From: Oscillospiraceae bacterium
GTDB taxonomy: Bacteria; Bacillota; Clostridia; Oscillospirales; Oscillospiraceae
Length of the DNA stretch: 57,914 bases
Assembly (NCBI GenBank): GCA_015067795.1
Contig: SVLU01000013.1
Coordinates: 1-57,914, forward strand
Direction: 5' to 3'
Shown here: piece by piece, positions 33,758-57,764 of the stretch
Layout: each line of letters starts with the position of its first letter
Position numbering within the stretch: position 1 is the first letter of the stretch
Made by a program: the position numbers and the translations under genes
Notes under the pieces: model-generated
What the model was told of the DNA's origin: nothing
Databases searched by the model: none
The model's input: only the letters and a program-made list of their open reading frames with translations

Positions 33758-34392
33758 AACGAATAAACCTGCCTTTCGGAATCCTCAGCATTGCGAAGGG
33801 CTATTTTGCGTTTTGAAATCTTGGAACGCACCACAGCATTAACCTGCTGGTCTGCCAAATAAATTGATATTTTTCTGATGTTCTCCTCAGTTTCGGGTAT
33901 TTTTACCTTTTCAAACAGGTTGACTCTCTGTGAGGTTGCATGAAGCTCTTCCTGTAAGAGTCTGACCTGCTCATCCAACACTTCCGCCTCCAAATCGAGC
34001 AGCATAGCCTTTTCCATGTGGTTTGCTGCTATATCTACCCAAAGAGGCGTTTTATATAAATCATAGTCTCCTCTGAGAAAATCCGCTCCTTCAAAGACCG
34101 GAATAGCAACACCTGCAATATTCCCAACGCCCTTGCGAATATTGCTTACGGTGATTATTCCATCGGGGAAAGCGTCTTTTTCGCTGAAAACCGAGATCCA
34201 GGACTCAAATCCTTTTTCAAGGTTTTCTTTCTCTTGTCTTACAGCTCTGGCCTTTGGTTCGATGTTGCGGATTTCGGCCTGAAGCTGCTGCTTTTTAAGT
34301 GTCAGAGTAGGCAAATATCTCCGGTACATTTTGAGAGCATCCTTTTGTACCTTTAACTCGTTTTTGGTTAGTTTGATTTTTGCCATAAGCAC
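33754..34392 (-). CDS. ntpD: V-type ATPase subunit D
   Basis: About 210 aa, charged and helical: MAKIKLTKNELKVQKDALKMYRRYLPTLTLKKQQLQ. Confidence 0.85.
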   Translation of the reverse strand: MLMAKIKLTKNELKVQKDALKMYRRYLPTLTLKKQQLQAEIRNIEPKARAVRQEKENLEKGFESWISVFSEKDAFPDGIITVSNIRKGVGNIAGVAIPVFEGADFLRGDYDLYKTPLWVDIAANHMEKAMLLDLEAEVLDEQVRLLQEELHATSQRVNLFEKVKIPETEENIRKISIYLADQQVNAVVRSKISKRKIALRNAEDSERQVYSL

Positions 34393-34400
34393 AGTCCCCC

Positions 34401-35696
34401 TTACTTAACAGGCCAGAATTCATCAGTAAGGTCTGACTTTATACCGGTTTCATCCTTTTCAAAGCAGTCGGCCAGAATTTCCCATCCCAAATCGAGAGCG
34501 TTTTCAAGAGATAAATTGACCGACAGGTCCATGAGCTTGTTTTCAAAAAGCTTGCCGTATTTAAGAAGCTTTTCGTCCCAGCGGTTCATGGCAAAGCCCA
34601 TGTTTTTCTTTTCAAGAGTTTCCTTATAGGAAGAATACAGACGAATCATAGAGTCCATAAGGGCACGGTGGTCTTTGCGGGTTTTGTTGTTTACGTTCTG
34701 CTTCAGTCGGGAAAGCGAACCAAAGGGCTCAATACGGCCGCCCTTAAGGTAATACTGGCCTTCTGTAATATAGCCGGTATTATCGGGAACGGGATGTGTT
34801 ACGTCGTCGCCCGGCATGGTGGTGACAGCCAGAATGGTAACGGAGCCGGAATCGGCAAAGTCAACCGCCTTTTCGTAACGGGCAGCAAGCTGGGAATAGA
34901 GGTCACCGGGATAGCCGCGGTTGGAAGGTACCTGCTCCTGAATAATTGCAACTTCCTTCATGGCATCGGCATAGTTGGTCATATCGGTGAGCAGTACCAA
35001 TACGTCCTTGTCCTGCAAAGCAAACTGCTCTGCAACTGCCAGAACCATATCAGGGATCATCATACATTCAACGGTTGGGTCGGCTGCAGTATGAATAAAC
35101 ATAACTGTCTTGCTTAAAGCACCGCCCTTTGAAAGGGTGTCCTTAAAATAAAGAAAATCATCATATTTAAGGCCCATGCCGCCAAGAACAATTACATCTG
35201 CCTCCGCCTGCATTGCAATATGGGCAAGAAGCTCATTGTAGGGCTCGCCGGAAATGGAGAAAATAGGAAGCTTCTGAGAAACAACCAATGTATTGAACAT
35301 ATCGATCATCGGAATGTTGGTTCTCATCATTCGGTTAGCAAGAATTCGTTTGGTCGGGTTAACGGAAGGTCCGCCGATAGGTGTCATATTTTCGGCAAGT
35401 GCCGGACCGTTATCTCTCGGCTCACCTGAGCCGTTAAAAATACGACCCAAAAGATTCTCGCTGAAGGATACACGCATTTCGTGACCTAAAAAACGAACCT
35501 CGTCACCTGTGAAAATGCCCTGTCCGCCTGCAAACACCTGCAAGGAAACAATGTCACCGTCGATTTTATTAACCTTGGCAAGTGATTTGCCGAAGCGTGT
35601 ACTTATCTGAGCAAGCTCATTATATCGAACATCTTTCGCCTTTACGGTAATAACGCTGCCTGTGATAGATTCAATTCGGTTATATACTTTATTCAT
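34401..35696 (-). CDS. ntpB: V-type ATPase subunit B
   Basis: 431 aa homologous to the regulatory (non-catalytic) nucleotide-binding subunit. Confidence 0.9.
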
Positions 35697-35698
35697 TC

Positions 35699-37468
35699 TT
35701 ACTCACCGCCCTTTAACAAAAGCTCTGCCTCATGGCTGAGTTTGCCCTGACCGTCCTTGTAAAGCCGGTCGATTTCCGCTTCAGCCTTCTTGAAGGCATC
35801 GCTTTCAAATTCCGTATAATTCCAGTTGATAAATCTCTGACGCATACGGTTGAAGAAGCTGCGTGCGTCGTCTTTATTATCAACCGCAAATTCACTGCCT
35901 AAAACAAGTATCAGCTTATCGGTAACATAGCGCTGACGTAATGTGCCGCAGTTTGCTTCGATGGGGTCAAAGGAATTCTGCTGCAGATAAACCGCGTCGA
36001 GCATTTCCTCTTTAAGATAAATAATATAGTCGGAAAGACTTGTGCCTTCTTCGCCAACAACCTTCATCATGGAGTTGATCTCATCACCGTGGTTAAGCAT
36101 ATTTTTGAAAAACTCGCTCTTTTTGCGATCAATAACACCGTTGTACTTGGACCAGGAGATAAGTGCGTCAATCGCAGGATACTTTCTTGCGTCAGAGCGT
36201 TCACGGGAAAGACCGTGGAAAGCACCTACAACCTTTAAGGTTGCCTGAGTTACCGGCTCTTCAAAGTTGCCGCCTGCCGGTGAAACCGTGCCGCCTATTG
36301 TTACGGAGCCTGTACTTCCATCGGGTAAGCGAACATAGCCCGCTCTTTCATAAAATGAAGCAATGTAAGATTCCAGATAAGCAGGAAAAGCTTCCTCGCC
36401 GGGGATTTCTTCAAGTCTGCCGGACATTTCTCTGAGAGCCTGTGCCCATCGGGATGTGGAGTCTGCCAGAAGCAGAACATTCAGACCCATCTGACGGTAA
36501 TACTCAGCAAGAGTTACCGAGGTATATACCGATGCTTCTCTGGATGCTACCGGCATGGAGGAGGTATTGCAAATAATAATGGTGCGTTCCATGAGAGAAC
36601 GGCCTGTTTTTGGGTCGGTAAGCTCAGGGAATTCGGTAATCGTTTCAACAACTTCACCGGCACGCTCACCGCAGGCTGCGATAATAACAATATCCACATC
36701 TGCGTACTTGGATGTGGTGTGCTGTAAAACGGTTTTACCTGCGCCAAATGGTCCGGGAGTACAGTATGTGCCGCCCTTTGCAACCGGGAATAAAGAGTCG
36801 ATAACGCGAACCTTTGTCTCCATGTTTTCAACAGGTGCCAATCTTTCGCTGTAACACTTTATCGCACGCTTAACAGGCCACTTGAATGACATAGACAGAG
36901 AAATATTTTTTCCGCGTTCATCGGTAATAACCGCAATAGATTCATTTACGGTATAAGCACCCTTTTTTGCAATATATGTCAGGGTATAATTTCCCAGCAG
37001 ATAAAAAGGAACAAAGATCTTATGGGTAAATACACCTTCCGGAACGGTTCCTATGTATTCGCCGGCACGCAGAGTATCGCCGATTTTGGCGGTAGGAGTA
37101 AACTCCCACTTTTTCTCAGCATTGAGGCTGTCCATATAAACACCGCGTTCCAGGAACCAGCCTGCCTTTTCAGCTAATTTAGGCAGCGGATTTTGAAGTC
37201 CGTCATATATCTGACCAAGCAGACCCGGGCCAAGCTGTGCCGACAGCATATGTCCTGTAAATTCAACTTCATCGCCGCACTTTATACCATTTGTCATTTC
37301 ATAAACCTGTATCTGAGCGACATTTCCGCGAATACGGATAACCTCGCTTTTAAGTGCGGTATCTTCAACTATAACATAGCAAATTTCATTCATGGAAACA
37401 TTGCCCGTAAATTCAACAGACACTAAGTTTCCGTTAATACTAATAACCTTACCTGTTCTTTCGGTCAT
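35699..37468 (-). CDS. ntpA: V-type ATPase catalytic subunit A
   Basis: 589 aa with Walker [10 protein letters not shown] and the A-subunit non-homologous insertion. Confidence 0.9.
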
Positions 37469-38022
37469 AATATATCCTCCAACCTTCTGCTGTTTAAAGC
37501 GGAGTCGTAAAAATATCTGTATGCGGCCTCTCCGACAGCCGCATCAAACTGCCTTGTTCGCAAAATCAGTTTCAGCTTAAGACCATAGTAAAAGACAAAT
37601 TCCTCCGAAAATTGATCCATTGGTCTGAGAGTTTCCAAAAATTCCATCCGATAACCGTCAAGGAATTTTTCCGCTTCCAGAGGATTTTCAATCTCTACCG
37701 CTGTGCTTGCCACCTTTACAAGTCCTATCGGCAGGCATCTGTTTCCTATGTCAAATGGCTTTTTCATTTTTTCTGCCCTGACTTTACCAAGAGCAAGCCG
37801 CAAATTCCGTTCTCCTTCATTCCATGCTTCAACCAAAGCTGAGCTTGATTTTTCACAGTTTATCTGCGGCACAAGTGCTAAATTGTTTAATTCTTTCAGT
37901 GTCTTTTTCCCTAAAAAGCGGCTGCATAGCTCTGAAAACCGCTCCTCAGTAATAGGTGCCGGCATATTTTCACCGATTGCGTCCAAACACGGCAGCTGTG
38001 AAATCAAATAATATTCAGCCAT
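37465..38022 (-). CDS. V-ATPase operon protein of unknown function (DUF2764-like, as in spirochaete/chlamydial second-type V-ATPase operons); it occupies the slot where subunits C and F would be
   Basis: 185 aa, located between E and A. It resembles neither C (about 330 aa) nor F (about 100 aa). Confidence 0.5.
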   Translation of the reverse strand: MAEYYLISQLPCLDAIGENMPAPITEERFSELCSRFLGKKTLKELNNLALVPQINCEKSSSALVEAWNEGERNLRLALGKVRAEKMKKPFDIGNRCLPIGLVKVASTAVEIENPLEAEKFLDGYRMEFLETLRPMDQFSEEFVFYYGLKLKLILRTRQFDAAVGEAAYRYFYDSALNSRRLEDIL

Positions 38023-38024
38023 AA

Positions 38025-38633
38025 TTATTCAGCCTCTTTCAAAAGCTCCGTAACCCTGGGGCTCAGGTAGTTTGATAACATATCCACCACAGCCTCGGCA
38101 GAGTAGTCATAATAAACACCGTCGCTATTTTCGGCAATACGGAAGCCTCCGTCAAAATTGTCATTTGCCCTGAGCGTTACGCCCTTTATCATTCTGTCCT
38201 TAAGAGCCGCAAGGATAGCTTTTTCAAACCGCTTCAAATCTTCGCTGTTCATAACCACTGAGATATCCTCTGCATCCGGCTTGCTTGCCCATCCCTCAAC
38301 AGCCTTTACAACAAGCTGCACAAGTGCATCCGAGGTGTACACATCAGTAACACGTTCTCCGACAATAGCCTTAAGCTCTCTCGCAACGCTTTCTCTGAAG
38401 GAAATAAGGAGATTACGTCCCGCCTGTCGGATAGAGTCCTCGCCCGACTTCACCATTCGTTCATTCTCAGTTTTTGCATTAAGTATAATTCTGTCTGCCT
38501 GTGCCTGTGCATCTGCAATAATTTTCTCAGCCTGTTCGTTCGCAGCATCAACTATTGCCTTGGCTTCAAATTCCGCAGCCTCTACGCCGTCCTTTTTTAT
38601 CTGGTCAATAAGCTCCTGTAATTGTATTTCCAT
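38025..38633 (-). CDS. ntpE: V-type ATPase subunit E
   Basis: Starts at MEIQLQELIDQIKKDGVEAAE, after an AAAGGAGAAAG ribosome-binding site. N-terminal coiled coil plus a C-terminal globular domain. Confidence 0.75.
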   Translation of the reverse strand: MEIQLQELIDQIKKDGVEAAEFEAKAIVDAANEQAEKIIADAQAQADRIILNAKTENERMVKSGEDSIRQAGRNLLISFRESVARELKAIVGERVTDVYTSDALVQLVVKAVEGWASKPDAEDISVVMNSEDLKRFEKAILAALKDRMIKGVTLRANDNFDGGFRIAENSDGVYYDYSAEAVVDMLSNYLSPRVTELLKEAE

Positions 38634-38983
38634 AAGACTTTCTCCTTTATTGTATTTACACTGATCACAATCTTGACATGATCCGACACTCATTTTATGC
38701 AATGGGTATCAGGTTGCGTTTGCCTCCCCTGTTCACAGGGTTTTTCTGCAATACCGACAGCAAAATTGGTACAGTTAGTTTCCGTGCAACTGATTTTTAC
38801 GGCTGTAATTTTTCAATGCCGCGAATTCTGTTTTAACATCTTCCCCAGACTATTGTATCATTAAAACGCTAAATAATATAGTGTAATTTTTTGAATTTTG
38901 AAAAAATTTTTACCAAAATATTTGGGGTCACCAATCTCAATCGTTCCCGCAATCGCATACCGCAAGCTTAGTCTGCTCTAAAA

Positions 38984-39025
38984 AACAAAATCCCGAAAAC
39001 CCATAATTTGCAAGGGTTTTCGGGA
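38984..39025 (-). terminator. terminator downstream of the TPM-domain gene
   Basis: cccgaaaaccc...gggttttcggg hairpin. Confidence 0.6.
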
Positions 39026-39071
39026 CTTGAAAGTCTAATTTGATCTCATTTGGTTTCGGCAACTTTATCCT

Positions 39072-39854
39072 TTAAAAAGAACCCCTGCTTCCGCCGTGTG
39101 ATCTTCCTGAAGAGGATCTATGGGTGGAAGAACCGCCGGAACTGCTGCTCTCCCGCTTCTGTCGGCGGACCTGACGGTACAGGAACATATCACGTCTTTC
39201 GGTGACTTTCATGCTTCCGGATTTTACATATTCGGAAGCCGCAGTTTGAGCACGAACGGTCTTGAGCTTGCTTCTCATGACACCTGTCACAATAAGTGCC
39301 GCAAACAGACCGATACCAAGAGAAATCAGCAGAGTTTTTCCAACGTTAAAAGTTCCTCTTGGCAGGCTACCCACATCATAAGGTCTGCCTGTCTTTGCCT
39401 GAGAGATAAATTCATCACAGAGTTCGGCGTATGTATCAAATGCCGCACTATACTCACCAGCGGACAGAAGATCCGCAAACTGATTTGCCATATAATCCAG
39501 TCCGGCATCGGTAAATGCAGTAATGCAGTATCCGGTAGTGGAAATGGCCCATTCCCTGTCATAGTCGGAAACTAACAGCAAAATGCCATCGGGCAGGTAT
39601 CCGTTCTCATCGTAATAGTCATCTGCAAAAGCTGTGATATCATTACCATACAGTGCCGGGATGGTCACGACAACAACGTCCATCCCCTGTCGGGTGCTGA
39701 TTTCATTTAGCTTACTTAAAAGTGCGGTTTCTTCACTGTCTGTCAAATAGTCTGCATTATCGTCCAGACGTGAGGAACCTGCGGCACAAACCGGAAGCAC
39801 CATGGAAACGCAGAACATTAGCAGGAAGACGAGAGATAAATATTTCTTTTTCAT
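39072..39854 (-). CDS. TPM-domain (YgcG/YdjH-like) secreted/membrane protein with a C-terminal TM helix and a Gly/Ser/Arg-rich tail
   Basis: Signal peptide; ...LTDSEETALLSKLNEISTRQGMDVVVVTI... is the TPM fold signature. TM helix LLISLGIGLFAALIVTGV, then a low-complexity tail. Confidence 0.7.
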   Translation of the reverse strand: MKKKYLSLVFLLMFCVSMVLPVCAAGSSRLDDNADYLTDSEETALLSKLNEISTRQGMDVVVVTIPALYGNDITAFADDYYDENGYLPDGILLLVSDYDREWAISTTGYCITAFTDAGLDYMANQFADLLSAGEYSAAFDTYAELCDEFISQAKTGRPYDVGSLPRGTFNVGKTLLISLGIGLFAALIVTGVMRSKLKTVRAQTAASEYVKSGSMKVTERRDMFLYRQVRRQKRESSSSGGSSTHRSSSGRSHGGSRGSF

Positions 39855-39867
39855 CGCCCACACCTCC

Positions 39868-40953
39868 TTACAGCAGCCACAGGAGATAGGAAACGGCAAA
39901 GCAAGCCGCACCGATCAGGCCTGTCAGTCCAAACAACCATTTTCTGAATGCACCCTTATCCACCGGAAGATCACCTACGAATTTACCTGTCTGGCCATTC
40001 ATAGCAAAGGTGTATTTTTTGCCGTTCCATGTGGTATTCAGCAGCCAAACAGGATACAGAGCATATTTTGCTGTTCCGTTCTGCAGGCGAATACTTGTGA
40101 ATTCCGGTACAACTGTGGTATAGCCCTGCACTGTGGAGGCAAAGGCATTTTCTGTACTCTTTTTGATACGCTGATTTGCCCGCTCAACGCTCTGCTCAGA
40201 ATCAACATCATACTTATCCGCCAAGTAACCGGCAAGATATGCCGTTTGGAAATCCACCGCTTCGGCAAAGTTGTAAGGCTCGATGGATTCCATAAGCGCA
40301 TCATCCATCTTGGAAGAGCCGTCCACCGGCACACGTTCAAAGCCTATCTGACCGCCTCGGCTTACCGCATAAAAGCTTGTTTCGGTGTAGTTATAGTTGC
40401 GGTCGCTCCATGCACGAACCTTCGTTGCCTTATAACGGATATTAGCATCGGCATCAGCATCAAAGAGCCAAACCGGAACATATATACCCTTGATTTCATC
40501 GAGATGGTTTTCGTCCTTAAACACCTTAGGCATCAGACGCTTTCCTTCATAATGCTTCTTTAACGCCGCTTTAGCCGCTTTTTTATCTATCTTAAACGGA
40601 ATTACATAGTCAGGCTTCAGGCTGCCCGAAAACTGACGCATCATAACAATAGGATTACCGCAGAATGGGCAGGAGGTTGCCGCAGTCGTTTCGTCACCGA
40701 CAATTTCACAGCCGCAGGATTTGCAGATATAGGAGTTCAGTCCATCTGTTTCACCGTCCTGCCATTCAGAACCAGCTGCATTTTCCCACTTCATTTCTTC
40801 CGCAGGCTGGTTTTTCAGTTCTTCGTCGTAGGAAACCAAGGTCTCCATTTCAAATTCCGCATCGCAAAACGGACACTTCATCTTTTGCAGCGAGCTGTTA
40901 AACTCGATAGGTCCGCCGCAGCAGGGGCATTTGTATTCCTGTAATACAGCCAT
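39868..40953 (-). CDS. double zinc-ribbon membrane protein (YdjG-like)
   Basis: CPCCG...CPFC and CKSCG...CPFCG ribbons, a central soluble domain and a C-terminal TM helix. Confidence 0.6.
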   Translation of the reverse strand: MAVLQEYKCPCCGGPIEFNSSLQKMKCPFCDAEFEMETLVSYDEELKNQPAEEMKWENAAGSEWQDGETDGLNSYICKSCGCEIVGDETTAATSCPFCGNPIVMMRQFSGSLKPDYVIPFKIDKKAAKAALKKHYEGKRLMPKVFKDENHLDEIKGIYVPVWLFDADADANIRYKATKVRAWSDRNYNYTETSFYAVSRGGQIGFERVPVDGSSKMDDALMESIEPYNFAEAVDFQTAYLAGYLADKYDVDSEQSVERANQRIKKSTENAFASTVQGYTTVVPEFTSIRLQNGTAKYALYPVWLLNTTWNGKKYTFAMNGQTGKFVGDLPVDKGAFRKWLFGLTGLIGAACFAVSYLLWLL

Positions 40954-40976
40954 TTATACCACCTCCTTATGCGTTC

Positions 40977-42374
40977 TTATCTTTTATCGTTGTCATCAAA
41001 CAGGTCTCCGCATTCCGGACAGAATTTTGGTGGGTTGCGTGGATCTTCCGGTTCCCAGCCGCACTTGTCACAGCGATACAGCGGAGCACCTTCCGGTTTC
41101 TTTGAGCCGCAATTCTGGCAGAACTTACCCTTGTTTACTGCACCGCAGGAACAGGTCCAGCCGCCATCAGCAGGCTTTGGAGATCCGCATTCAGGACAGA
41201 ACTTTCCTGTTGCCATAGTGCCGCATTTGCATTTCCAGCTTCCTGCCTGTACAGGCTCCGGCTTCTTACCGCCGCATTCCGGGCAGAACTTACCGGTTGC
41301 CATTGCTCCGCAGGAGCATTTCCAACCGTTTGCATTAGGTGCAGCCTGAACGGGCTGCTGTGGCTGCTGCTGACCCATAGCAAAGAGGTTTTGAGGGTTT
41401 ACACCGCCTGCATTCATTGCCATGCCCATTCCCATAAAGCCGGTCATAGCACCGGCCTGGTTGGAGGCTGCTGCCTTCATTGCATCTGCCTGAGCACCAA
41501 CCAATGTAGCCGCCGCCATGGTAGGATCACGCATGATAGCGGTACGCTGTGCCTGCTTGATCATTTCCGCATCTTCTTCCGGCAGAGTAACAGAACCGAG
41601 AGCGATGCTTACAACCTGCAAGCCTCTCAGCTCGCCCCACTTCGCGGAAAGCGCAGCATTCATGGCTTCTTCTAACTCTGTGTTGTGAGAAATGATCTGA
41701 TTTGGACGAAGCTCCATATTGGACAGTCTGCCCAGTGCCGGCTGTAATGCGCTGATGAACTCAGTCTTTAACTGATTTTCAATCTCGTCACGGGTATATT
41801 CCTGTTCCACATTGCCGCATACGTTGGTATAGAACAGCAGAGGATTTGCGATCTTATAGGAATATACACCGAAGCAGCGGAGAGATACGTCAATATCCAG
41901 ACCGATTTTAGAGTCCACTACCCGGAATGGAATTGGGTTTGGTGTACCGAATTTGTTGTCAATCAGCTCTTTTGTGTTGAAATAGTAAACACGCTGATCC
42001 TTGCCTGTGTCACCGCCAAAGGTAAAACGCTTACCAACGGTTTTAAATGTTTCCTTTATGCTGCTGCCAAGACTGCCTGCAAAAATGCTTGGTTCTGTGG
42101 AAGTGTCGTATGTAAATTCACCGGGTTCAGCACAGACCTCAACGATTTTGCCTTGCTCCACGATCATCATGCACTGACCGTCCGCAACGGCGATTACGCT
42201 GCCGTTGGAAATAATATTATCGCTGCCCTTGGTATTGGAGGAACGTCTGCCTGTACGCTTACGTCCTTTAGCCACCATAGTGTCCTTATCCATTGATTCG
42301 CAATAGAAATACTCTTTCCATTGATCGGCAAAGGTTCCGCCTAAAGCTCCTAAGCCTGCTTTAATGAGACCCAT
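40977..42374 (-). CDS. SPFH/band-7 domain protein (YdjI-like) fused to three or four C-terminal zinc-ribbon repeats
   Basis: N-terminus MGLIKAGLGALGG...NTKGSDNIISNGSVIAV...; the SPFH core is in the central region. A Met/Gly/Ala/Gln-rich linker follows, then W(K/T)C(S/K)CG..(A/N)(T/K)GKFC(P/Q)(E/N)CG repeated three times, plus a CDKCG...CPECG. Confidence 0.7.
   Translation of the reverse strand: MGLIKAGLGALGGTFADQWKEYFYCESMDKDTMVAKGRKRTGRRSSNTKGSDNIISNGSVIAVADGQCMMIVEQGKIVEVCAEPGEFTYDTSTEPSIFAGSLGSSIKETFKTVGKRFTFGGDTGKDQRVYYFNTKELIDNKFGTPNPIPFRVVDSKIGLDIDVSLRCFGVYSYKIANPLLFYTNVCGNVEQEYTRDEIENQLKTEFISALQPALGRLSNMELRPNQIISHNTELEEAMNAALSAKWGELRGLQVVSIALGSVTLPEEDAEMIKQAQRTAIMRDPTMAAATLVGAQADAMKAAASNQAGAMTGFMGMGMAMNAGGVNPQNLFAMGQQQPQQPVQAAPNANGWKCSCGAMATGKFCPECGGKKPEPVQAGSWKCKCGTMATGKFCPECGSPKPADGGWTCSCGAVNKGKFCQNCGSKKPEGAPLYRCDKCGWEPEDPRNPPKFCPECGDLFDDNDKR
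41010..41340. repeat. tandem repeats of about 63 bp (x3) encoding the zinc-ribbon repeats
   Basis: ccgcattccggrcagaayttwccggttgccat.g..ccgcag... repeated in phase. Confidence 0.7.
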
Positions 42375-42410
42375 AATTCATTTCTCCTTTTTTAGTTTTA
42401 TATACTATTT

Positions 42411-43757
42411 TTATTTACTTGGCATACCGTTATTACCGACTGTAAATTCAATCTTTTCTGTGCCATTGTCAACATCGTCCAGAATTAACTTACCCGGATC
42501 GGTTGGCACTATGAATTTGTTATCGGCAAGCCAGGATGGACTTACATTCATTTCGCCAACCTTTGTAACGCTGCCGTCTGCATTCAGACTTAGAACGACA
42601 AGGCTCATCTGTCGCCAGCCCTCTTCAAAGTCCTCGCAGAACAAATACACATAATTACCATCTGCAGCCTTGACATAATATGGGTGTAAGTCATATACAT
42701 AACATTCCTCATAGTAGTACTGACCGTCTGTATCTGTGTAGATGCCATAATCCATAAAGTGATTACGCTCATCGTTGTACCAGCCTGAAACGGATATTGC
42801 CTCTAAATCATCGTCTGTATCAAGTTCTGCAAAGAAGGAAATATCAAGGGGCAGTTCAATCGCATATTCCGCCGGAGCAACCATATATTTTTCGTTAAAC
42901 AGCTCCGGATACTCAGCAAAGGCAAGGGTTGCCGACGTCAAACCATCGTCACTCAAATCTCCTGCTGAAAAATAGAAGGTCAGACCGATATAATCAATCG
43001 TCCAGTTAAAGCCGTCGTATGGAGTGTTTGCGAAATAATCCTGAACGGCATATTCGGAATAGAAATCAGCTGTCCATGTATGATCGTTAAGTTCCTTTTC
43101 CACAGCTAATGCCAGATCATTATTTACAGACTTTACAACATCGTCCAGCGTAAGCTCTTCACCGCTTTGCGTATCATAGTTGCTGCCGTGAAATACTCTG
43201 TAATTTTCAATCTGACCGTAATGTGAATAGGAATCCGTCAGGAGACTGATGACAACACTATCCCCACGGCGTACCTGAACATCCAGCGTTGACACACAGG
43301 TTTCAAAGCCATCACTGTTTGCGTCCAGCTCTTCCCTGGCAATGCTTAACAGATTATCAAACTCATCCTCCATGGAACGGGTTTGCATTGCGGCGATTTG
43401 ATTGAAGGTTTCTGCCATTTCGGGATATAATTCCGCATCTTCCTGTCCAACCGTTACATAAGAATGTTCACTGCGGACCATATCCTTGCCGGAGGTATCA
43501 TCCCATTCGTAATACGTATGCAATGATTTTTCAAGGGAAAGAATCTTAACTGACTCAGTATCGTTTACTACCGGATCTTCGGTGATTTCGGTATCGGGCT
43601 GGTTTTCGGTTATTTCTTCACTTTCGGTATCGGGCTCTGTTTCTATTATGTCTTCATTTTCAGGCTCCTGAGGCTGTTCAGTATCTTTTTGGCAAGCGGC
43701 CAAACACAGAAGCATACAGACAGAAAGCAGTAAACTTACAATTTTCTGACACTTCAT
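42411..43757 (-). CDS. acidic lipoprotein of unknown function
   Basis: Lipobox LAAC, an acidic E/T/P-rich linker, and a roughly 380 aa Asp/Tyr-rich globular region. Confidence 0.7.
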   Translation of the reverse strand: MKCQKIVSLLLSVCMLLCLAACQKDTEQPQEPENEDIIETEPDTESEEITENQPDTEITEDPVVNDTESVKILSLEKSLHTYYEWDDTSGKDMVRSEHSYVTVGQEDAELYPEMAETFNQIAAMQTRSMEDEFDNLLSIAREELDANSDGFETCVSTLDVQVRRGDSVVISLLTDSYSHYGQIENYRVFHGSNYDTQSGEELTLDDVVKSVNNDLALAVEKELNDHTWTADFYSEYAVQDYFANTPYDGFNWTIDYIGLTFYFSAGDLSDDGLTSATLAFAEYPELFNEKYMVAPAEYAIELPLDISFFAELDTDDDLEAISVSGWYNDERNHFMDYGIYTDTDGQYYYEECYVYDLHPYYVKAADGNYVYLFCEDFEEGWRQMSLVVLSLNADGSVTKVGEMNVSPSWLADNKFIVPTDPGKLILDDVDNGTEKIEFTVGNNGMPSK

Positions 43758-43789
43758 TTGGGTAAATCTCCTTCCTGATTTTAAACACA

Positions 43790-43822
43790 GGGCGAAAGGG
43801 CTGCTGCCCCTTCGCCCTCTAT
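43790..43822 (-). terminator. terminator between the two lipoprotein genes
   Basis: agggcgaagg...ccttcgccct hairpin. Confidence 0.5.
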
Positions 43823-43835
43823 TATAGCTATTATT

Positions 43836-45143
43836 TTACTTTCGTACAAGTACCCAATCCAAGTCAAGAACCAGATTGCCATCTTCGATCTCTGCGTAGA
43901 AGTTGCTATGATCACCGTCATCATAGCGAATGTCAATATTATTGTCGTACAGAGTATAGGAGAATTCATAGGTGTCGTCCTTCCATGTGTAAACACCTCT
44001 GCCGTCGGCTTTGAATGTGAAGCTTTCGTTATTTCCTGCTTCTTCATCCAGCCAGCATCCAATCAATGCGCTTGCCAAATCGCTGTCATCGGAAACTTCG
44101 ATCTCTTCGTCGGATTTGTCCAGTATGATCTCATTGCCGAACTGGTCAATAAGGGTCAGCACGCTGCCGGCTGCAGAAACAGTGAAGCTTTCCTCGTCGC
44201 CGTCATCGTATGTCAGAGTGAGACTATCGCCGCTAACCGCATATGTAAATGGATATTCCGGACCGCTGATAAGAAGACCGCTGCCATCTTCATTGAATAC
44301 ATAAGTGTTGTCCCAGTCGCTGTCTCTTTCAAGCCATGTGCCGTAAAGTGCGGAAGCATCCACGTTCACAACGGGAGCTGCAGTTCCTTCGTCAGCTTCC
44401 AGATCCCATGTTCTGCCGCTGTCCACACCAAATAGCTGGCCTGCGATCCATGCATACTGGTCTTCAGTAATATCCCAACCGTTGACTGTAAAACCGAAAA
44501 GACCGGGTGCTGTGACGCCATCCTCAACCTTGCCGTCGTCCATGACTCTCCAGAAGTAGTGCGTGTACTCGACGCCAACAAATACTTCGCTATAGGTAAA
44601 GTCGTCGGCAGAGGTATATGTAGTCTCAATGAGCTTTACGTCCTTGTCCTCCCACTTGAAGCCAAGGTCTATTACCTTCTGATCGTACTCTGGGTATTCT
44701 GCTGCGGTCTCAGGGGCCAGTTCGCCGTCAAAGTAGAGCTGCTCGAGAACGCCGTAACCTGTAGGAAGTTCAGTTGGGTCGTTATAGATGTCGCGGCTCC
44801 AATAAACATGGGAGTAGGTGCTGTAATCTCTGACATCGTCATATACCCAGAAGTCATTGAGATATCCGTCTGTCAGATATTCAGCATACTCATCCTCGTC
44901 GAAGTATGCGCCTTCAGGGCAGTAGATGGTGGCTGTGTAAGCCTCATAGTCCGGGTTGCTGCCGTACTGGGTCACAACGGACTTGACCTCGTCATCAGCC
45001 GGCTCAGACTCCTCAGGTGTTACATTCTCGTCCGTAGTGGACTCAACCGGTTCGGAATTCTCCTCAGGTGCTTCCTTTCCACCACAGGCAACCAGAGTAA
45101 GCAGCATGATTGCTGTAAGAATGATTGCTAAAATTCTTTTCAT
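43836..45143 (-). CDS. acidic lipoprotein of unknown function
   Basis: Lipobox LVAC, an acidic linker, and a very Asp/Tyr/Glu-rich body. Confidence 0.7.
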   Translation of the reverse strand: MKRILAIILTAIMLLTLVACGGKEAPEENSEPVESTTDENVTPEESEPADDEVKSVVTQYGSNPDYEAYTATIYCPEGAYFDEDEYAEYLTDGYLNDFWVYDDVRDYSTYSHVYWSRDIYNDPTELPTGYGVLEQLYFDGELAPETAAEYPEYDQKVIDLGFKWEDKDVKLIETTYTSADDFTYSEVFVGVEYTHYFWRVMDDGKVEDGVTAPGLFGFTVNGWDITEDQYAWIAGQLFGVDSGRTWDLEADEGTAAPVVNVDASALYGTWLERDSDWDNTYVFNEDGSGLLISGPEYPFTYAVSGDSLTLTYDDGDEESFTVSAAGSVLTLIDQFGNEIILDKSDEEIEVSDDSDLASALIGCWLDEEAGNNESFTFKADGRGVYTWKDDTYEFSYTLYDNNIDIRYDDGDHSNFYAEIEDGNLVLDLDWVLVRK

Positions 45144-45164
45144 TTTCTTTTCCTCCTATGTATA

Positions 45165-46001
45165 CTACTTTTTAAATAACTTACCGAAGAAACCTTGCTT
45201 TACCTTGCCTTCTTCGATGGCGTTTGCTGTTTCAATACCCTCTTTGACGACTTCCTTCACGTTTTCGCCCTTCACCGCTGCCTTGAGGGCTGCTGCGGCG
45301 GTATCGCCAAGATTGCGTACCTGCATACGGCTTTTGCGTTCCAGGTCAAACTCAGCCTTGCCAAGCCATGCTATGCGGTCGCTATTAATCCGATTAGCCA
45401 GATCATGGAATGCTCTAACCCCATCCGCACCGGATACTTCAGACTCAAAACGAATTTCACGGATGCAAATATCGTCGTATGGAATGGTCAGCACACAGCG
45501 GTTAACCTTGCCATCATCGCCCTTGGATTCTTCAACCTGTACATATTCAGCATTTGGGTTAGTGATTTCGCTGCGGCGTGTAAAGAATTCGGACTCACCT
45601 TCGGAGCGGAACTCATAAGGCATCATCTTTTCAAACCAGAATACCGGGATATGCTCATAGCGGCTCATCTCGCTCATGTTGATCTGGAAAGCACCAATGG
45701 TGGTGTTGCAGCGGTAGTGGACACGCTTGCTACCTAAGTCCCAAGTGTTGAAGCTGCGTTCTGCTCGAGCAAATCTACCTTCAGCGGCATCAAAGCTGGC
45801 CTCAAAATCAGCTGCTTCCTGTCCCAGATTATCCATCATAAGCTGGGCGTTGTCTTTAGAGGTGTAGCTCATTCTTGCGAAGTAATTGGTTTTGTGCTTA
45901 CATTCGTTGCAGATAAATTCCTTTGTTGCCAGTTTGGAGCGCTTCAATGCTCCTACTTCTGTACCGCAAAAGGTACAGGCTTCTTTGCTAAATAAACCCA
46001 T
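45165..46001 (-). CDS. zinc-ribbon protein of unknown function (N-terminal C-x2-C...C-x2-C)
   Basis: Starts MGLFSKEACTFCG...CNECK, followed by a roughly 250 aa domain with no recognisable motif. Confidence 0.55.
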   Translation of the reverse strand: MGLFSKEACTFCGTEVGALKRSKLATKEFICNECKHKTNYFARMSYTSKDNAQLMMDNLGQEAADFEASFDAAEGRFARAERSFNTWDLGSKRVHYRCNTTIGAFQINMSEMSRYEHIPVFWFEKMMPYEFRSEGESEFFTRRSEITNPNAEYVQVEESKGDDGKVNRCVLTIPYDDICIREIRFESEVSGADGVRAFHDLANRINSDRIAWLGKAEFDLERKSRMQVRNLGDTAAAALKAAVKGENVKEVVKEGIETANAIEEGKVKQGFFGKLFKK

Positions 46002-46054
46002 AATCTTTCTTCCTTTCCTTAATAACTGTTGAATAAAATCCTGCAATTTGGGCT

Positions 46055-46354
46055 TTACAGCTTTTCGGCACAGCGTTTACAACAGACACCGCCATTGTCC
46101 AATGCACCATACACCGTGCACTCCTCACAGACCATATCTCCGCATACTTCACAACGATTAAGCTCATGACGTACTTCATTGTTTGCCCGCTCGTAAGCCT
46201 TGCTGTGATCGTTTGCGTAGATAATAGCCCGTGCCTCCCGTTCATCGCGGCTGAGCCAAAGCTTCTTTTTGAACTGCATCTGTGGCTCGATCACGATGGG
46301 CGGCAAAGACTTCCCACAGCAATCACAGAAAAATTCAAACTCGAAACGGCTCAT
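46055..46354 (-). CDS. small multi-CxxC zinc-finger protein
   Basis: FCDCCG, CEVCGD, CEEC and CCKRC within 99 aa. Confidence 0.5.
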   Translation of the reverse strand: MSRFEFEFFCDCCGKSLPPIVIEPQMQFKKKLWLSRDEREARAIIYANDHSKAYERANNEVRHELNRCEVCGDMVCEECTVYGALDNGGVCCKRCAEKL

Positions 46355-46540
46355 TGTTGAATTATCTGCAAACCGTTTTGTGACAGATCTCAGCACGGTT
46401 GACCTCCTTCCAATATTTTATTTCAATTATATTTTACGAGAAAAACCGTCTCTGGAACAGGCCACTTCAGCAGCAAAAAGGGCTAATTTTAGGGCTACCA
46501 TGGGAGGGTTACCATCATTAAGGTATCAGCGATAACTTAT

Positions 46541-46556
46541 AATTGACAGTATTGTC
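46541..46556. promoter_or_regulatory. palindromic -35/operator candidate TTGACA-gtat-TGTCAA upstream of the XRE gene
   Basis: TTGACAgtatTGTCAAattatgcTATATT lies 45 bp upstream of the ATG. Confidence 0.45.
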
Positions 46557-46601
46557 AAATTATGCTATATTATGATATACTAAACATGAGAGGTTATCCC
46601 C

Positions 46602-46844
46602 ATGAGTGGAATTAAATTAGACATTCATAATAAGGCTTTTCCGGACCAGGTCAAGTATGTACGCATGGTTTTGCAATTAAGCCAGACAGAGCTTGCTGAG
46701 CAGATCGGTGTCTCCTACGCAACCGTCAGCCGTTGGGAACGCGAAAACCGCAAGCCGCAGCTTGCAATGCTGGGCAAGTTCTATTCCTTCTGTTTGCGTA
46801 ATGGCATTGAGCCGGAAAACACAGAACAAGGAGATCAGATATGA
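46602..46844 (+). CDS. XRE-family HTH transcriptional regulator (small, Cro/CI-like)
   Basis: LSQTELAEQIGVSYATVSRWERENRKP. Confidence 0.85.
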   Translation: MSGIKLDIHNKAFPDQVKYVRMVLQLSQTELAEQIGVSYATVSRWERENRKPQLAMLGKFYSFCLRNGIEPENTEQGDQI

Positions 46845-47851
46845 CTCTGTTTTATGTAATTACATTTGCAGTTTCTCTGCTAATGCTTTTAGTATATTTT
46901 ATCATCGACAGAAAACGTGATATTTGGCTGCGGCTGCTTTTTATCTTCGTTGCCATCAGTAATGCAGGCTATCTTGCATTATCGCTATCACGTTCTCTTA
47001 CCGCCGCACTTTTGTCAAACGCGGTTGCATATCTGGGAAACGTTTTCCTGCCTTTTTTCCTGCTGATGATGGTCATTCAGCTTTCCTATGTTCGGTATTC
47101 CAAGCGGCTTCCCATTATCCTGATTGTTCTTAATACAGTCATGTTCCTGATTGCAACCAGCGGCGGCTACCTTCCGATTTACTATAAAGAGGTATCCTTT
47201 GAGATCGTTGAGGGTGTCGGACATTTAGTCAAGGTCTACGGACCGCTGCACTGCGTATATAAATATTATCTGTTTGGATATTTTATTGCTATTAGCACCG
47301 TTATTTGCTATACCGCAATCAAAAAGACAGCTGTTTCCACAAAGCACACTGCATTTCTGGCTATTGTTTTGCTGGGCAATATCGCACTGTGGCTGGTGGA
47401 AAATCTCACCGGCACAAAATATGAATTTCTCACAATTTCTTACCTCATGACAGAGGGACTTATCCTGCTACTTTATGGTATTTTACAGGACTATGAAGCT
47501 GCCGAACCCGCAAGCGACTCCAGCGACCTTGCCTATGCGGACGCGGACGAACATCTGACAGTCGAAATGGTACAGGAAGAACCTGTAGTATTTGTTGATA
47601 ATCAACAGGTCTTTTCCGATGAGCAGATCAAAAATCTGCTTGAAAACTGGAACGTAATTTACGCTCTGACACAAAGAGAAGCCGAAGTTTTGAAATTCAT
47701 TCTTGAAAAACGCAAACGCAAAGACATCGCCCAGGTGCTTTTCGTAACAGAGAGTACAATTAAAAAGCACACCTCCAACATTTACAAAAAAATCGGTGTC
47801 GCCAATCGTACGGAGCTTTTTGAAAAAGCAAATACATATCTTATGAAATAA
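46841..47851 (+). CDS. membrane protein (about 6 TM) with a C-terminal LuxR-type HTH
   Basis: ...LTQREAEVLKFILEKRKRKDIAQVLFVTESTIKKHTSNIYKKIGVANRTEL... The N-terminal 200 aa are hydrophobic. Its ATG overlaps the XRE stop (ATGA). Confidence 0.75.
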   Translation: MTLFYVITFAVSLLMLLVYFIIDRKRDIWLRLLFIFVAISNAGYLALSLSRSLTAALLSNAVAYLGNVFLPFFLLMMVIQLSYVRYSKRLPIILIVLNTVMFLIATSGGYLPIYYKEVSFEIVEGVGHLVKVYGPLHCVYKYYLFGYFIAISTVICYTAIKKTAVSTKHTAFLAIVLLGNIALWLVENLTGTKYEFLTISYLMTEGLILLLYGILQDYEAAEPASDSSDLAYADADEHLTVEMVQEEPVVFVDNQQVFSDEQIKNLLENWNVIYALTQREAEVLKFILEKRKRKDIAQVLFVTESTIKKHTSNIYKKIGVANRTELFEKANTYLMK

Positions 47852-47854: not shown

Positions 47855-47892
47855 TAGAGCTAACTGATTGATTAAGTCAGTTAGCTCTTTAA
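47855..47892. terminator. bidirectional terminator
   Basis: agagctaactga...tcagttagctct. Confidence 0.65.
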
Positions 47893-47987
47893 TTATTGAT
47901 AGTGAAATTTTGTTGCCATTTCGTTGCCACGAATGGCTCAAATCCTTAAAAAGTCCGGTGATGACTGGGCTTTTTCGACCTGCGGGA

Positions 47988-48968
47988 TCACTCCCACTCA
48001 ATAGTGCCGATAGGCTTTGGAGTGATGTCCATAACCACGCGGTTGATGCCTTCCACCTCATGGGTGATACGGTCGGTAATATGGTGCAGGATTGGATATG
48101 GGATTTCTTCGATGGTAGCTGTCATAGCGTCCACAGTGTTTACTGCACGGAGGATAGCAGGCCAGCCTTCATAACGCTTGCCGTCGCGAACACCAACGCT
48201 CTTGAAATCAGGAACAGCGATGAAATACTGCCATACCTTTTCGGCAAGGCCGTTCTTGTCAAATTCTTCACGGAGAATTGCATCAGCTTCACGCAGTGCG
48301 TGGAGACGATCTCTTGTGATAGCACCGAGGCAGCGTACACCAAGACCGGGACCTGGGAATGGCTGACGGTATACCATGCCGTGCGGCAGGCCAAGAGCTT
48401 CACCAACGACACGAACCTCGTCCTTATACAGAAGCTTTACAGGCTCAACAAGCTGCATTTCCATTTCTTCAGGCAGACCGCCAACATTGTGGTGTGCCTT
48501 AACGCCATCGGACTCGATGATGTCAGGATAAATTGTACCCTGTGCAAGGAAGGAGATGCCCTCCAGCTTTGCGGACTCTTCATCAAATACCTTAATGAAT
48601 TCTTCGCCGATGATCTTACGCTTGCGTTCTGGTTCAGCTACGCCAGCCAGCTTGTCCAGGAAGCGGTCGGTTGCATCCACATAAATAAGGTTTGCGTCCA
48701 GTGCCTTACCGAAAACTTCGATAACCTGTTCACTTTCACCCTTACGCATAAGACCGTGGTTTACATGAACACAGACGAGCTGCTTACCAATAGCCTTAAT
48801 GAGCAGAGCTGCAACAACGGAAGAATCAACACCACCGGACAGAGCCAGCAGAACCTTCTTATCTCCTACCTGATTGCGTACAGCCTCTACCTGCTCGGCA
48901 ATAAAAGCCTGCGCCAGTTCATTATTAGTAATGCGTTCCATTGTTTCCGGACGTTTGTTGTTTTCCAT
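47988..48968 (-). CDS. guaA: GMP synthase, ATP-pyrophosphatase/synthetase subunit only (GuaA C-terminal half, like archaeal GuaAB subunit B); no glutamine amidotransferase domain is encoded here
   Basis: P-loop SGGVDSSV, plus the dimerisation domain. The start has a strong AGGGAGG ribosome-binding site, and upstream intergenic DNA leads directly to purF. Confidence 0.8.
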   Translation of the reverse strand: MENNKRPETMERITNNELAQAFIAEQVEAVRNQVGDKKVLLALSGGVDSSVVAALLIKAIGKQLVCVHVNHGLMRKGESEQVIEVFGKALDANLIYVDATDRFLDKLAGVAEPERKRKIIGEEFIKVFDEESAKLEGISFLAQGTIYPDIIESDGVKAHHNVGGLPEEMEMQLVEPVKLLYKDEVRVVGEALGLPHGMVYRQPFPGPGLGVRCLGAITRDRLHALREADAILREEFDKNGLAEKVWQYFIAVPDFKSVGVRDGKRYEGWPAILRAVNTVDAMTATIEEIPYPILHHITDRITHEVEGINRVVMDITPKPIGTIEWE

Positions 48969-49043
48969 TGTAATGCCTCCCTTAATTTCTATGTAAAAAT
49001 ATTAAACAATAATCAGATAATTATACGCTTCCCTGTGAAATTA

Positions 49044-50471
49044 TTATTCTTTTCCGTCCCAGCAGTAGGTGCAGAGCTTGCATTTGTCAATACCGATAGC
49101 CTCAACAGCACCCTCAAGAGACTGGAATTCAAGAGATGCGAAATTGAACTTATCACATATAGCCTGACGCATTCTCTTGCCGCGTTCCGTGGAAGCGTCA
49201 CTGTATTCATCAATATACTTAAGTCCTTCTTCACCCTCAAGTTCAACAATAGTCTTGCGTGTGATAAGCTCCATTGGGCTGGTTGCACGGGAGAAGTTGA
49301 GATATTTGCAGCTATACATAATAGGTGGACAAGCAGAACGCATATGAACAGACTTCGCACCATTGTCATACAGGAATTCTACTGTTTCCTTAAGCTGTGT
49401 GCCTCTAACGATGGAGTCGTCAACGAACAGCAGATTTTTGCCTTCGATGAGCTCGTGAATAGCTATCTGCTTCATCTTTGCAACCTTATTTCTATCCCTC
49501 TGGTTGGTAGGAGTGAAGCTTCTTGCCCATGTTGGGGTATATTTAATGAAAGGACGTGCAAACGGAATACCGCTTTCATTTGCGTAGCCAATAGCATGAG
49601 GTGTGCCGGAATCAGGAACACCGCTTACATAGTCAATATCCGCTGCAGTCTTACTCTCAGCATCAGCCTTTGCCAAAATGCCGCCATTGCGATAACGCAT
49701 GGTTTCGACATTTTTACCTTCATATGTGGAGTTTGGATAGCCGTAATAGGTCCAGAGGAATGCACAAATACGCATTTCTTTTCTTGGCGGAAGAATTTCA
49801 CTAATGCCGTCGGCTGTAATTTCAACTGTTTCGCCGGGGCCCAGCTCCTTTACGGTCTCATATCCCAGCTTCTGGAATGCGAAGGATTCAAAGGATACGC
49901 AATGACCGTCCTTGGACTTGCCGATGATAACAGGCAGACGACCATAGCGGTCGCGTGCCGCGATAATACCGCCGTCATCCTTGAGAATAAGGATGGATGC
50001 TGTACCGTCGATGGAGTCCTGTGCAAACCTGATACCATCTGCAAATGTACTCTTTCTGTTGATAAGCGCCGCAACAAGCTCAGCGGAATTGACCTTACCG
50101 CTTGTCATGGCATTGAATTGACCTGTACCGAAATCCAGATTGTGCTGGATAAGCTCTTCCGCATTATTGATAACGCCTATGATGCAAATTGCATAGGTGC
50201 CGAGATTGGAGCGCATCAGCAGTGGCTGTGGATCATAGTCGCTGATACAGCCGATTGCGGAATTACCGCTCATCTCGTCAGTAATTCTTTCAAACTTTGT
50301 TCTGAATGGAGAGTTCTGAATATTGTGGATGTCACGCTGTAAGCCAAGTCCTTCAGCGTCATAAGCAGCCATGCCGCCTCTTCTTGTGCCAAGGTGAGAA
50401 TGATAGTCTGTGCCGTAAAATACGTCGGAAACTGCATCTCGTTTACTTGCTATTCCGAAAAATCCGCCCAT
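49044..50471 (-). CDS. purF: amidophosphoribosyltransferase (PurF) with Gly in place of the N-terminal Cys nucleophile
   Basis: Starts MGGFFGI where the canonical sequence is MCG(I/V)(V/F)G. It has a PRTase domain and a C-terminal Cys cluster (CKLCTYC). A GGAGGA ribosome-binding site lies 5 nt upstream of the ATG. Confidence 0.8.
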   Translation of the reverse strand: MGGFFGIASKRDAVSDVFYGTDYHSHLGTRRGGMAAYDAEGLGLQRDIHNIQNSPFRTKFERITDEMSGNSAIGCISDYDPQPLLMRSNLGTYAICIIGVINNAEELIQHNLDFGTGQFNAMTSGKVNSAELVAALINRKSTFADGIRFAQDSIDGTASILILKDDGGIIAARDRYGRLPVIIGKSKDGHCVSFESFAFQKLGYETVKELGPGETVEITADGISEILPPRKEMRICAFLWTYYGYPNSTYEGKNVETMRYRNGGILAKADAESKTAADIDYVSGVPDSGTPHAIGYANESGIPFARPFIKYTPTWARSFTPTNQRDRNKVAKMKQIAIHELIEGKNLLFVDDSIVRGTQLKETVEFLYDNGAKSVHMRSACPPIMYSCKYLNFSRATSPMELITRKTIVELEGEEGLKYIDEYSDASTERGKRMRQAICDKFNFASLEFQSLEGAVEAIGIDKCKLCTYCWDGKE

Positions 50472-57760: not shown

Positions 57761-57764
57761 TTAT

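Follow-up and report, generated by a model that had tools for sequence, protein, structure and literature searches.

A SamGHI/YdjGHI-type gene trio and a separable DUF4428-lipoprotein cassette in a putative composite operon of an Oscillospiraceae bacterium

In Bacillus subtilis, YdjG has two zinc ribbons, an uncharacterised domain and a transmembrane (TM) segment, YdjH combines a TPM domain with a low-complexity segment, and YdjI consists of a band-7 domain and a C-terminal zinc ribbon (PMC11237479); the central domain of YdjG is reported to be NTF2/YpeB-like. YdjI, for which a region of low complexity and also a C-terminal zinc finger have been described, recruits PspA (PMC8581546). A 2026 preprint renames the genes samGHI and presents SamGHI as a sensor complex restrained by SamI, with PspA dispensable for that phenotype. 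According to a suggestion by Ravi et al., PspA homologues with genes elsewhere may cooperate with abbreviated band-7 operons. Here we analyse a seven-gene locus on contig SVLU01000013.1 of an Oscillospiraceae bacterium (assembly GCA_015067795.1), whose 57,914 nucleotides are referred to below as the window. The genes, designated g7 to g1 in order of transcription, lie consecutively and co-oriented on the minus strand at 39072–46396, and three of them resemble ydjGHI in the architecture of their products. From the sequence, the locus is probably a single transcription unit that is a composite of two separable parts.

Seven consecutive minus-strand genes had been recognised by an initial annotation made from the DNA letters, and this agrees with both the open reading frame (ORF) listing and the conserved homologues found here. 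Strongly conserved homologues exist for all of the genes, with E-values ranging from 1e-40 to 0, and the seven are therefore not chance ORFs. The end of the feature, placed at 46354 in that annotation, is corrected to 46396 on the basis of the GTG start of g7 (see below).

The proximal trio and its relatives

The published architectures of YdjG, YdjH and YdjI agree with those of g2, g1 and g3, as the initial annotation had proposed, and we consider with moderate confidence that g3-g2-g1 forms a SamGHI/YdjGHI-type module, of a common and already known kind. Gene g3 (40977–42374, minus strand) encodes a 465-residue soluble SPFH protein of the YdjI/SamI type (Pfam Band_7_1, 2e-20) with no TM segment. 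The SPFH domain is followed by a Met/Gly/Ala/Gln linker (about 41340–41489) and then by four zinc units (40980–41339), comprising three WxCxCG...GKFCxxCG fingers and one CDKCGW...FCPECG ribbon; five CxxC motifs are present in the tail, and a broader pattern yields the four units. An exhaustive representative search found 4463 representative clusters of this family at E ≤ 1e-3 and 708 at E ≤ 1e-30, and a sequence search of the PDB gave no match. In an alignment of 32 diverse members (37–64% identity), conserved features include the MGLIKA...DQW.E.F N-terminus, the SPFH domain, an M/G/A/Q/N linker, repeated WxCxCG..NTGKFCxxCGxKKP fingers and a terminal CDKCGWEPEDPxNPPKFCPECGD ribbon.

The number of zinc units was counted in 81 homologues from species-representative genomes, of which 41 have three and 37 have four. 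Fingers 1 and 2 of g3 (41185–41237 and 41272–41324) are an 87-nt tandem duplication, 81% identical in DNA sequence, which explains the variation between three and four units and fits ongoing gain and loss of finger units among species. The SPFH protein had been described as having acquired its linker and three to four ribbons. This does not hold, since YdjI itself has a linker and a zinc finger, so that those of g3 were not acquired in this lineage, and since three or four units occur in 78 of the 81 homologues.

Gene g2 (39868–40953, minus strand) encodes a 361-residue YdjG/SamG-like protein with two N-terminal zinc ribbons (CxxC pairs at residues 9/27 and 77/95), a domain of ~230 residues that has no Pfam model and a single TM segment (339–361) at the extreme C-terminus, indicating a tail-anchored protein. 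Profile searches of Pfam and NCBIfam gave weak matches to zinc-ribbon families only, and those of the PDB chance-level or generic ribbon matches only. The last gene, g1 (39072–39854, minus strand), encodes a 260-residue YdjH/SamH-like TPM protein (TPM_phosphatase, PF04536, 4.4e-26) with a signal sequence, an extracytoplasmic TPM domain, a TM segment at 169–195 and a Ser/Gly/Arg-rich cytoplasmic tail; a marginal TPM match was obtained in the PDB sequence search (7tbr, E 0.003). The three families are found in the same order, with no pspA annotated, in Enterococcus gallinarum NZ_CP116511 (WP_005472382, WP_003127086, WP_003127085), where genes for an SPFH protein, a hypothetical protein of 374 residues and a TPM protein lie between dnaX and ribosomal-protein genes. 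Over its full length, g2 is 33% identical (E 2e-69) to that hypothetical protein, and the identity between g1 and the Enterococcus TPM protein is 24%.

To place the trio in context, we scanned one genome per GTDB species with a 12-sequence SPFH alignment as seed, which yielded 80 loci (L008–L087) with 63–84% identity in the best segment. The ORFs of the loci were compared by phmmer, jackhmmer and clustering, and the 40 species-level loci with at least 5 kb upstream and at least 8 kb downstream were treated as complete. Most of the 80 loci belong to Oscillospiraceae, Lachnospiraceae and other Clostridia. At loci that have the full trio, the order is SPFH, G (the g2 counterpart), TPM, with the exception of L026 and L051. 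Among the complete loci, G follows SPFH in 36 of 40 and TPM is present in 37 of 40; the genes flanking the trio are otherwise unrelated from locus to locus. The I-G-H order, which the initial annotation had set against that of B. subtilis, does differ from the Bacillus arrangement, but it is no peculiarity of this locus, being standard in the 80 species-level loci and in Enterococcus.

Trio proteins 63–74% identical are encoded in Streptococcus sp. oral taxon 058, a Sphaerochaetaceae bacterium, Parolsenella and Acholeplasmatales (L048, L061, L084, L085; TPM was not detected in L085), and the trio of L003–L005 adjoins Mob_Pre, primase and resolvase genes. This distribution, together with the mobile-element neighbours, suggests horizontal transfer. 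A distant SPFH homologue (39% identity) in Monoglobus pectinilyticus (NZ_OY725743, L098) lacks a G or TPM partner and is preceded by a gene for a TIM44-like domain protein, which is a different partner for Band_7_1 proteins.

No pspA gene accompanies the trio. A jackhmmer search seeded with E. coli PspA, a single distant seed used with no positive control, gave no match at E ≤ 0.01 in the 58-kb window or in 87 loci (the 80 from the genome scan among them), the best match in the window having E = 2. Pfam scans of the remaining unannotated window proteins found V-ATPase subunits, BacA, SpoIIM, Sel1/TPR and others, with no PspA_IM30 (PF04012), and no Pfam family, PspA included, occurs in more than 3 of the 144 nearest trio neighbours of 150–320 residues at the 80 loci. 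The absence of a nearby pspA gene had been noticed at the outset as a distinguishing feature of this stretch. The window searches agree that none is present, but with none at the 80 species-level loci or annotated in the Enterococcus region, the absence is a clade-wide property at the level of the locus. It is possible that another part of the genome encodes PspA.

The upstream genes and the g6-g5-g4 cassette

The upstream genes g7, g6, g5 and g4 lie outside the conserved core. Among the 40 complete loci we counted g7-like genes in 3, g4-like genes in 4, g5-like genes in 5, DUF4428 genes in 10, DUF6935 genes in 7 and genes for LuxR/7TM regulators in 8.

The first gene of the operon, g7 (46055–46396, minus strand), encodes a Cys-rich protein of 113 residues. 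Its start is the GTG at 46396, which is preceded by a GGAAGGAGG ribosome-binding site, whereas the ATG at 46354 has none. The 14 residues added by the GTG start (VLRSVTKRFADNST) align with the MLKAVTKRFxDKST N-terminus of the closest homologues, in L024 and L065, and genes called independently on a metagenomic contig of identical sequence likewise include one of 113 residues. The initial annotation was thus right about a co-oriented upstream protein with multiple CxxC motifs, while its length of 99 residues is superseded. Eight cysteines are conserved across five to six homologues in the pattern CxxC...CxxC-x4-CxxC...C...CxxC, enough for about two zinc sites. Five homologues of g7 were found (L018, L019, L023, L024 and L065), each 0–51 nt upstream of an SPFH gene. 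No family in Pfam, NCBIfam, PADLOC or PHROGs matched g7.

Eight other loci (L011, L013, L014, L022, L025, L031, L036 and L038) have no g7-like gene and encode a different small protein of 90–135 residues directly upstream of SPFH. These proteins match small membrane-protein families weakly and probably span the membrane; they may be an alternative upstream partner of SPFH.

Gene g6 (45165–46001, minus strand) encodes a soluble protein of 278 residues with no TM segment. It scores 25.7 bits against PF14471 (DUF4428), for which the gathering score is 27.8; jackhmmer connects it to bona fide DUF4428 proteins, and all but one of the 120 g6 homologues listed (64–97% identity) carry PF14471. The AlphaFold2 model, built from 43 homologues (pLDDT 77, pTM 0.71), has an N-terminal ribbon, a helix, a seven-stranded beta domain (residues 85–188), a long capping helix (191–244) and an amphipathic C-terminal tail (GFFGKLFKK). 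The beta domain is predicted to adopt a PH/PTB-like fold. Structure prediction thus adds a second domain to the protein of 278 residues with an N-terminal zinc ribbon that had been picked out initially. Homologues of the SNIPE nuclease that lack TM segments carry an N-terminal PH or DUF4428 domain (bioRxiv 10.1101/2025.11.03.685801), and this replacement of TM anchors is compatible with g6 being located at the membrane. The protein is best read as a peripheral adaptor. Near SPFH genes there are two classes of DUF4428 protein, one full-length and g6-like and one, c4, with the ribbon only. The c4 class was considered as a counterpart of g6 and set aside, as hhalign found that the two have only the N-terminal ribbon in common and that the PH-like domain is absent from c4.

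The next two genes encode highly acidic lipoproteins, as had been noted from the sequence, each with a lipobox and a pI of 4.05. The product of g5 (43836–45143, minus strand; 435 residues, lipobox LTLVAC, 22.8% Asp+Glu) ends in two DUF5640/Lipocalin_4 repeats (Pfam DUF5640 1.9e-16, Lipocalin_4 7.5e-8). A Pfam scan of the g4 product (42411–43757, minus strand; 448 residues, lipobox CLAAC, 21% Asp+Glu) found no domain match. The two do not qualify as paralogues, being alike only in the signal peptide and an acidic linker.

Look-ups centred on g6 (homologues of 64–68% identity) revealed g6-g5-g4 to be a syntenic cassette. A g5-like lipoprotein gene follows the g6 homologue in L006, L007, L089/L090, L091/L092 and L093, and g4 homologues follow g5-like genes in L007, L091/L092, L093 and L065. 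A DUF6935 gene precedes g6 in L089–L093, usually with a gene for a 152-residue acidic protein (absent or different in L006 and L093). Stand-alone cassettes face a divergent pair encoding a 552-residue LuxR-type regulator and an SBP_bac_8 solute-binding protein, and the g6-type cassette seems to be a conserved module by itself, as yet uncharacterised. Beside SPFH genes, the cassette occurs in the window, L003–L005 and L007, with a more distant g6-like/g5-like version in L019.

Insertions at the SPFH-G junction involve similar classes of gene. At 16 of 65 loci, SPFH and G are separated by inserted genes, which invariably share the strand of the operon: DUF4428/zinc-ribbon proteins are encoded in 10 and lipoproteins in 8. 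These two classes occur in 14 of the 16 insertion loci, and no inserted ORF is present in the other two. The combination of zinc ribbons and lipoproteins that the initial annotation pointed out therefore recurs. The closest parallel to the window is L065 (Acutalibacteraceae), where a reverse-oriented 7TM-LuxR gene and a reverse-oriented HTH_3 gene are followed by g7-like, SPFH, DUF4428, G, TPM, DUF6935, g5-like and g4-like genes. The L065 cassette is split, sitting after SPFH and after TPM, and its DUF4428 protein has only the ribbon in common with g6; L019 and L024 carry shuffled subsets of the gene set of L065 and the window. Set beside L065, the window looks as though g6-g5-g4 had been inserted between g7 and SPFH. 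The repeated presence of DUF4428, lipoprotein and DUF6935 cassettes in or beside SPFH trios, together with 7TM-LuxR regulators, makes them most likely optional accessories. Their DUF4428/lipoprotein pairing with the trio recurs in about a quarter of related species, and the function proposed for it below is by analogy.

A shared N-terminal motif links several of these families. An MG[LIV][FILV] start is found in 82 of 87 SPFH proteins, 9 of 16 DUF4428 proteins and 3 of 12 DUF6935 proteins, against 5 of 795 background genes, and may represent a membrane-binding or recognition helix. An unrelated 214-residue Sel1/TPR protein in the window (51919–52563) starts MGIFDRFKK, and E. coli PspA starts MGIFSRF.

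Expression signals and the surrounding window

The intergenic gaps of the operon measure 13–78 nt (23 nt between g3 and g2, 13 nt between g2 and g1), and a Shine-Dalgarno sequence stands before each of g1 to g6. Directly 3′ of g1 lies an intrinsic terminator (38979–39028, minus strand) with a 15-bp stem, an 11-nt loop and a U-run. It was missed by a simple terminator scan and recovered by folding against shuffled sequences (dG −23.8 kcal/mol, z −5.56; none of 200 shuffles folded as well). A consensus scan offers weak evidence for a sigma-70-like promoter at 46627–46654 (minus strand; TTGACC, 16 nt, TATTAT; 10 of 12 matches), a candidate for the operon promoter. Divergently transcribed from the operon is a pair of overlapping plus-strand genes (46602–47851), encoding an HTH_3 protein (46602–46844; Pfam HTH_3) and a 7TM-LuxR one-component regulator (46841–47851; HisKA_7TM and GerE), which probably controls the operon. 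Homologues of the 7TM-LuxR gene adjoin the extended loci L007, L013, L019, L024, L038, L054 and L065.

A perfect 16-bp palindrome (TTGACAGTATTGTCAA, 46543–46558) is situated in the divergent intergenic region that separates g7 from the HTH_3 gene, overlapping promoter-like hexamers. Its candidacy as a conserved operator was rejected, because it is absent from every related locus; at least one such match was also obtained in 18 of 100 shuffles of the window. An Rfam scan identified no RNA element in the operon or upstream of it.

Elsewhere in the window, the same scan identified two Gut-1 sRNA copies (38–111 and 1119–1195) flanking a tRNA, a T-box leader (22563–22788) upstream of a gene for a 587-residue protein starting at 22887, and a 5S rRNA at the window end (57764–57880). 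An 824-codon plus-strand ORF at 47868–50342 is a shadow ORF over two real minus-strand genes, one encoding a GMP-synthase C-terminal/NAD-synthase-type protein (47988–48968) and the other a protein of 475 residues (49044–50471) that, judged by its sequence, looks like an amidophosphoribosyltransferase. Downstream of the terminator, across about 370 nt with promoter-like sites, a minus-strand run of genes with V-type ATPase features (31394–38702; vATP-synt_E, DUF2764) begins, and a large cluster at about 1.4–16 kb appears glycosyltransferase-like, as judged from N-terminal sequences.

Competing readings and comparison with known systems

We propose that the first part of the locus, g7 with g3-g2-g1, is a SamGHI/YdjGHI-type module without pspA at the locus. 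By analogy with B. subtilis, g1, with its TPM domain outside the cell, and the tail-anchored, double-zinc-ribbon g2 would assemble into a complex in the membrane, and this would bring the soluble, oligomeric SPFH protein g3 to the inner membrane face. There, g3 would scaffold or restrain the g1/g2 complex during envelope stress, and its four-unit zinc-finger tail could supply multivalent contacts. The second part would be the autonomous g6-g5-g4 cassette, inserted between g7 and the SPFH gene, with the g6 adaptor acting on the cytoplasmic face and the g4 and g5 lipoproteins on the outer one, close to the TPM domain. The gene structures, domain content, operon limits, conservation and co-occurrence are observed; contacts between the proteins, the signal for stress, control by the 7TM-LuxR regulator and any effector are inferred.

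This composite of a SamGHI-type core and an optional accessory cassette is the reading we favour, with some reservation, over four others. The initial annotation treated the seven genes as one module, and a strong form of that idea, in which all seven proteins constitute a single obligate, zinc-ribbon-dense envelope stress or scaffolding machine, draws on the compact operon with its one terminator, on near-complete sets of the gene families in three other species (L019, L024, L065) and on the significant co-occurrence of accessory families. We consider it improbable. No accessory gene is present at 27 of the 40 complete trio loci, the 10 kb around the g6-type cassette are free of SPFH, G and TPM genes in at least four contexts (L006, L089/L090, L091/L092 and L093), and accessory content and order vary widely among close relatives, as between L003–L005 and the window. 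At the other extreme, the upstream cassette might be functionally unlinked to the trio, with SPFH junctions acting as permissive sites that collect mobile lipoprotein and zinc-ribbon cassettes. The cassette is indeed autonomous elsewhere, with its own LuxR and SBP regulator pair, the trio and its flanks look horizontally mobile (63–74% identity in distant taxa; mobile-element genes at L003–L005) and close relatives differ in lipoprotein content. A site that was merely permissive would, however, be hard to square with the restriction of inserts to the same two classes in 14 of 16 insertion loci, always on the operon strand, with the position of g7-like genes, always immediately upstream of SPFH, and with the rare N-terminal motif common to SPFH and DUF4428 proteins; this explanation is unlikely, if less so than the obligate machine. 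A bare chance neighbourhood is contradicted by the non-random inserts, the g7-like position and the co-occurrence. The neighbourhood comparison thus gives a divided answer on the upstream four genes, which are optional and outside the core, while the accessory families do co-occur non-randomly: DUF4428 genes are accompanied by LuxR/GerE-type (7TM) regulators in 7 of 10 loci against 1 of 30 loci without them (Fisher p = 4.7e-5) and by DUF6935 in 7 of 10 against 0 of 30 (p = 6.4e-6), both values ignoring phylogenetic non-independence.

A standard PspA-dependent system, with pspA or liaH outside the window and its product recruited by the trio as in B. subtilis, is a real but minority possibility. 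It would accord with the recruitment of PspA by YdjI (PMC8581546) and with the suggestion of Ravi et al. that PspA homologues act from elsewhere; against it, no pspA was detected next to the trio at any of the 80 species-level loci, the Enterococcus region has none annotated, and SamGHI has PspA-independent functions. Indeed, the dispensability of PspA in the 2026 SamGHI preprint makes a PspA-independent role of the trio plausible. The idea of an anti-phage defence or phage-derived island takes its appeal from the N-terminal DUF4428 domain that certain SNIPE defence nucleases carry, the adjacent HTH_3 regulator and generic PADLOC HTH matches for neighbouring regulators. It is very improbable, and we reject the defence-island and prophage readings because PADLOC and PHROGs gave nothing meaningful for g1 to g7: PADLOC matches none of them, and PHROGs gives only weak ribbon or signal-peptide matches. 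The seven products also contain no nuclease or other effector domain, and 2.9 million viral contigs hold only 3 partial SPFH matches, at contig ends. Several of the observations above also weigh against the two-part composite that we prefer. The frequency of trios without accessory genes, the cassettes found away from any trio and the disregard of phylogenetic non-independence in the co-occurrence values all allow that the coupling of trio and cassette may be loose, or that the SPFH-G junction may simply tolerate insertions. The assignment of g2, g1 and g3 to YdjG, YdjH and YdjI rests on architecture and operon logic, the AlphaFold2 model of g2, from a shallow alignment, reaches only pLDDT 38 and pTM 0.21, and the PspA search depended on its one seed.

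More tentatively, and with less confidence than in the composite itself, DUF4428/PH adaptors, g7, DUF6935 and fast-evolving acidic lipoproteins could form an undescribed, 7TM-LuxR-controlled accessory layer on SamGHI-type scaffolds, giving a PspA-independent, envelope-spanning sensing or scaffolding system. Lipoproteins and the TPM domain would then occupy the outer face, and SPFH, zinc-ribbon and PH proteins the inner face. Work on SamGHI/YdjGHI has to date been confined to B. subtilis, where the module was regarded as a device for recruiting PspA. In Clostridia, Enterococcus and other lineages the trio as a rule occurs by itself, in the order I-G-H and with no pspA nearby, which fits the proposal of an autonomous membrane-stress sensor. 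The optional DUF4428 adaptors, lipoproteins and 7TM-LuxR regulators are candidate partners and inputs for the trio, and the analysis assigns a fold to g6 for the first time and places DUF4428, DUF6935 and the g7 family in a first genomic context. Cultivable carriers include Streptococcus sp. oral taxon 058 F0407, Ruminococcus sp. 5_1_39BFAA, Lachnospiraceae bacterium AM48-27BH and Enterococcus gallinarum; of the Streptococcus, Ruminococcus and Enterococcus strains, only Ruminococcus sp. 5_1_39BFAA (L023) carries a DUF4428 gene.

Several known systems invite comparison. Like flotillin/NfeD and HflK/C, the locus would pair an SPFH scaffold at the cytoplasmic membrane with operon-encoded membrane partners; g3 (Band_7_1) differs in lacking both a TM segment and a hairpin, and it is partnered by TPM and zinc-ribbon proteins. 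Neither an NfeD nor an FtsH domain was found when the seven operon products were scanned with Pfam, and a literature search for COG4260 gave no match. The likeness to E. coli PspABC, an analogy taken from the 2026 SamI preprint, lies in a membrane sensor complex checked by a peripheral cytoplasmic partner. The window, however, has no homologues of PspA, PspB, PspC or PspF, and the peripheral partner would be an SPFH protein and not an ESCRT-III-like coiled coil. With SNIPE, g6 shares the combination of a DUF4428 ribbon and a PH-like domain, both of which stand in for membrane anchors in SNIPE homologues, but it has no nuclease or other enzymatic domain and no defence-system context.

B. subtilis pspA-ydjGHI (pspA-samGHI) has the same three protein architectures in one operon, the likeness of g2 being judged from its two ribbons, its C-terminal TM segment and its conserved operon position. 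There the order is G-H-I with pspA and control is by sigma-W, whereas the order in the window is I-G-H, no pspA is found in the operon or the 58 kb, and the operon adjoins a 7TM-LuxR regulator. The YdjI tail has one zinc unit and that of g3 four, and the unit in the window further includes g7, g6, g5 and g4. The SPFH-hypothetical-TPM operons of Enterococcus and of about 63 clostridial and other loci are bare trios, to which the window adds g7 and g6-g5-g4 upstream.

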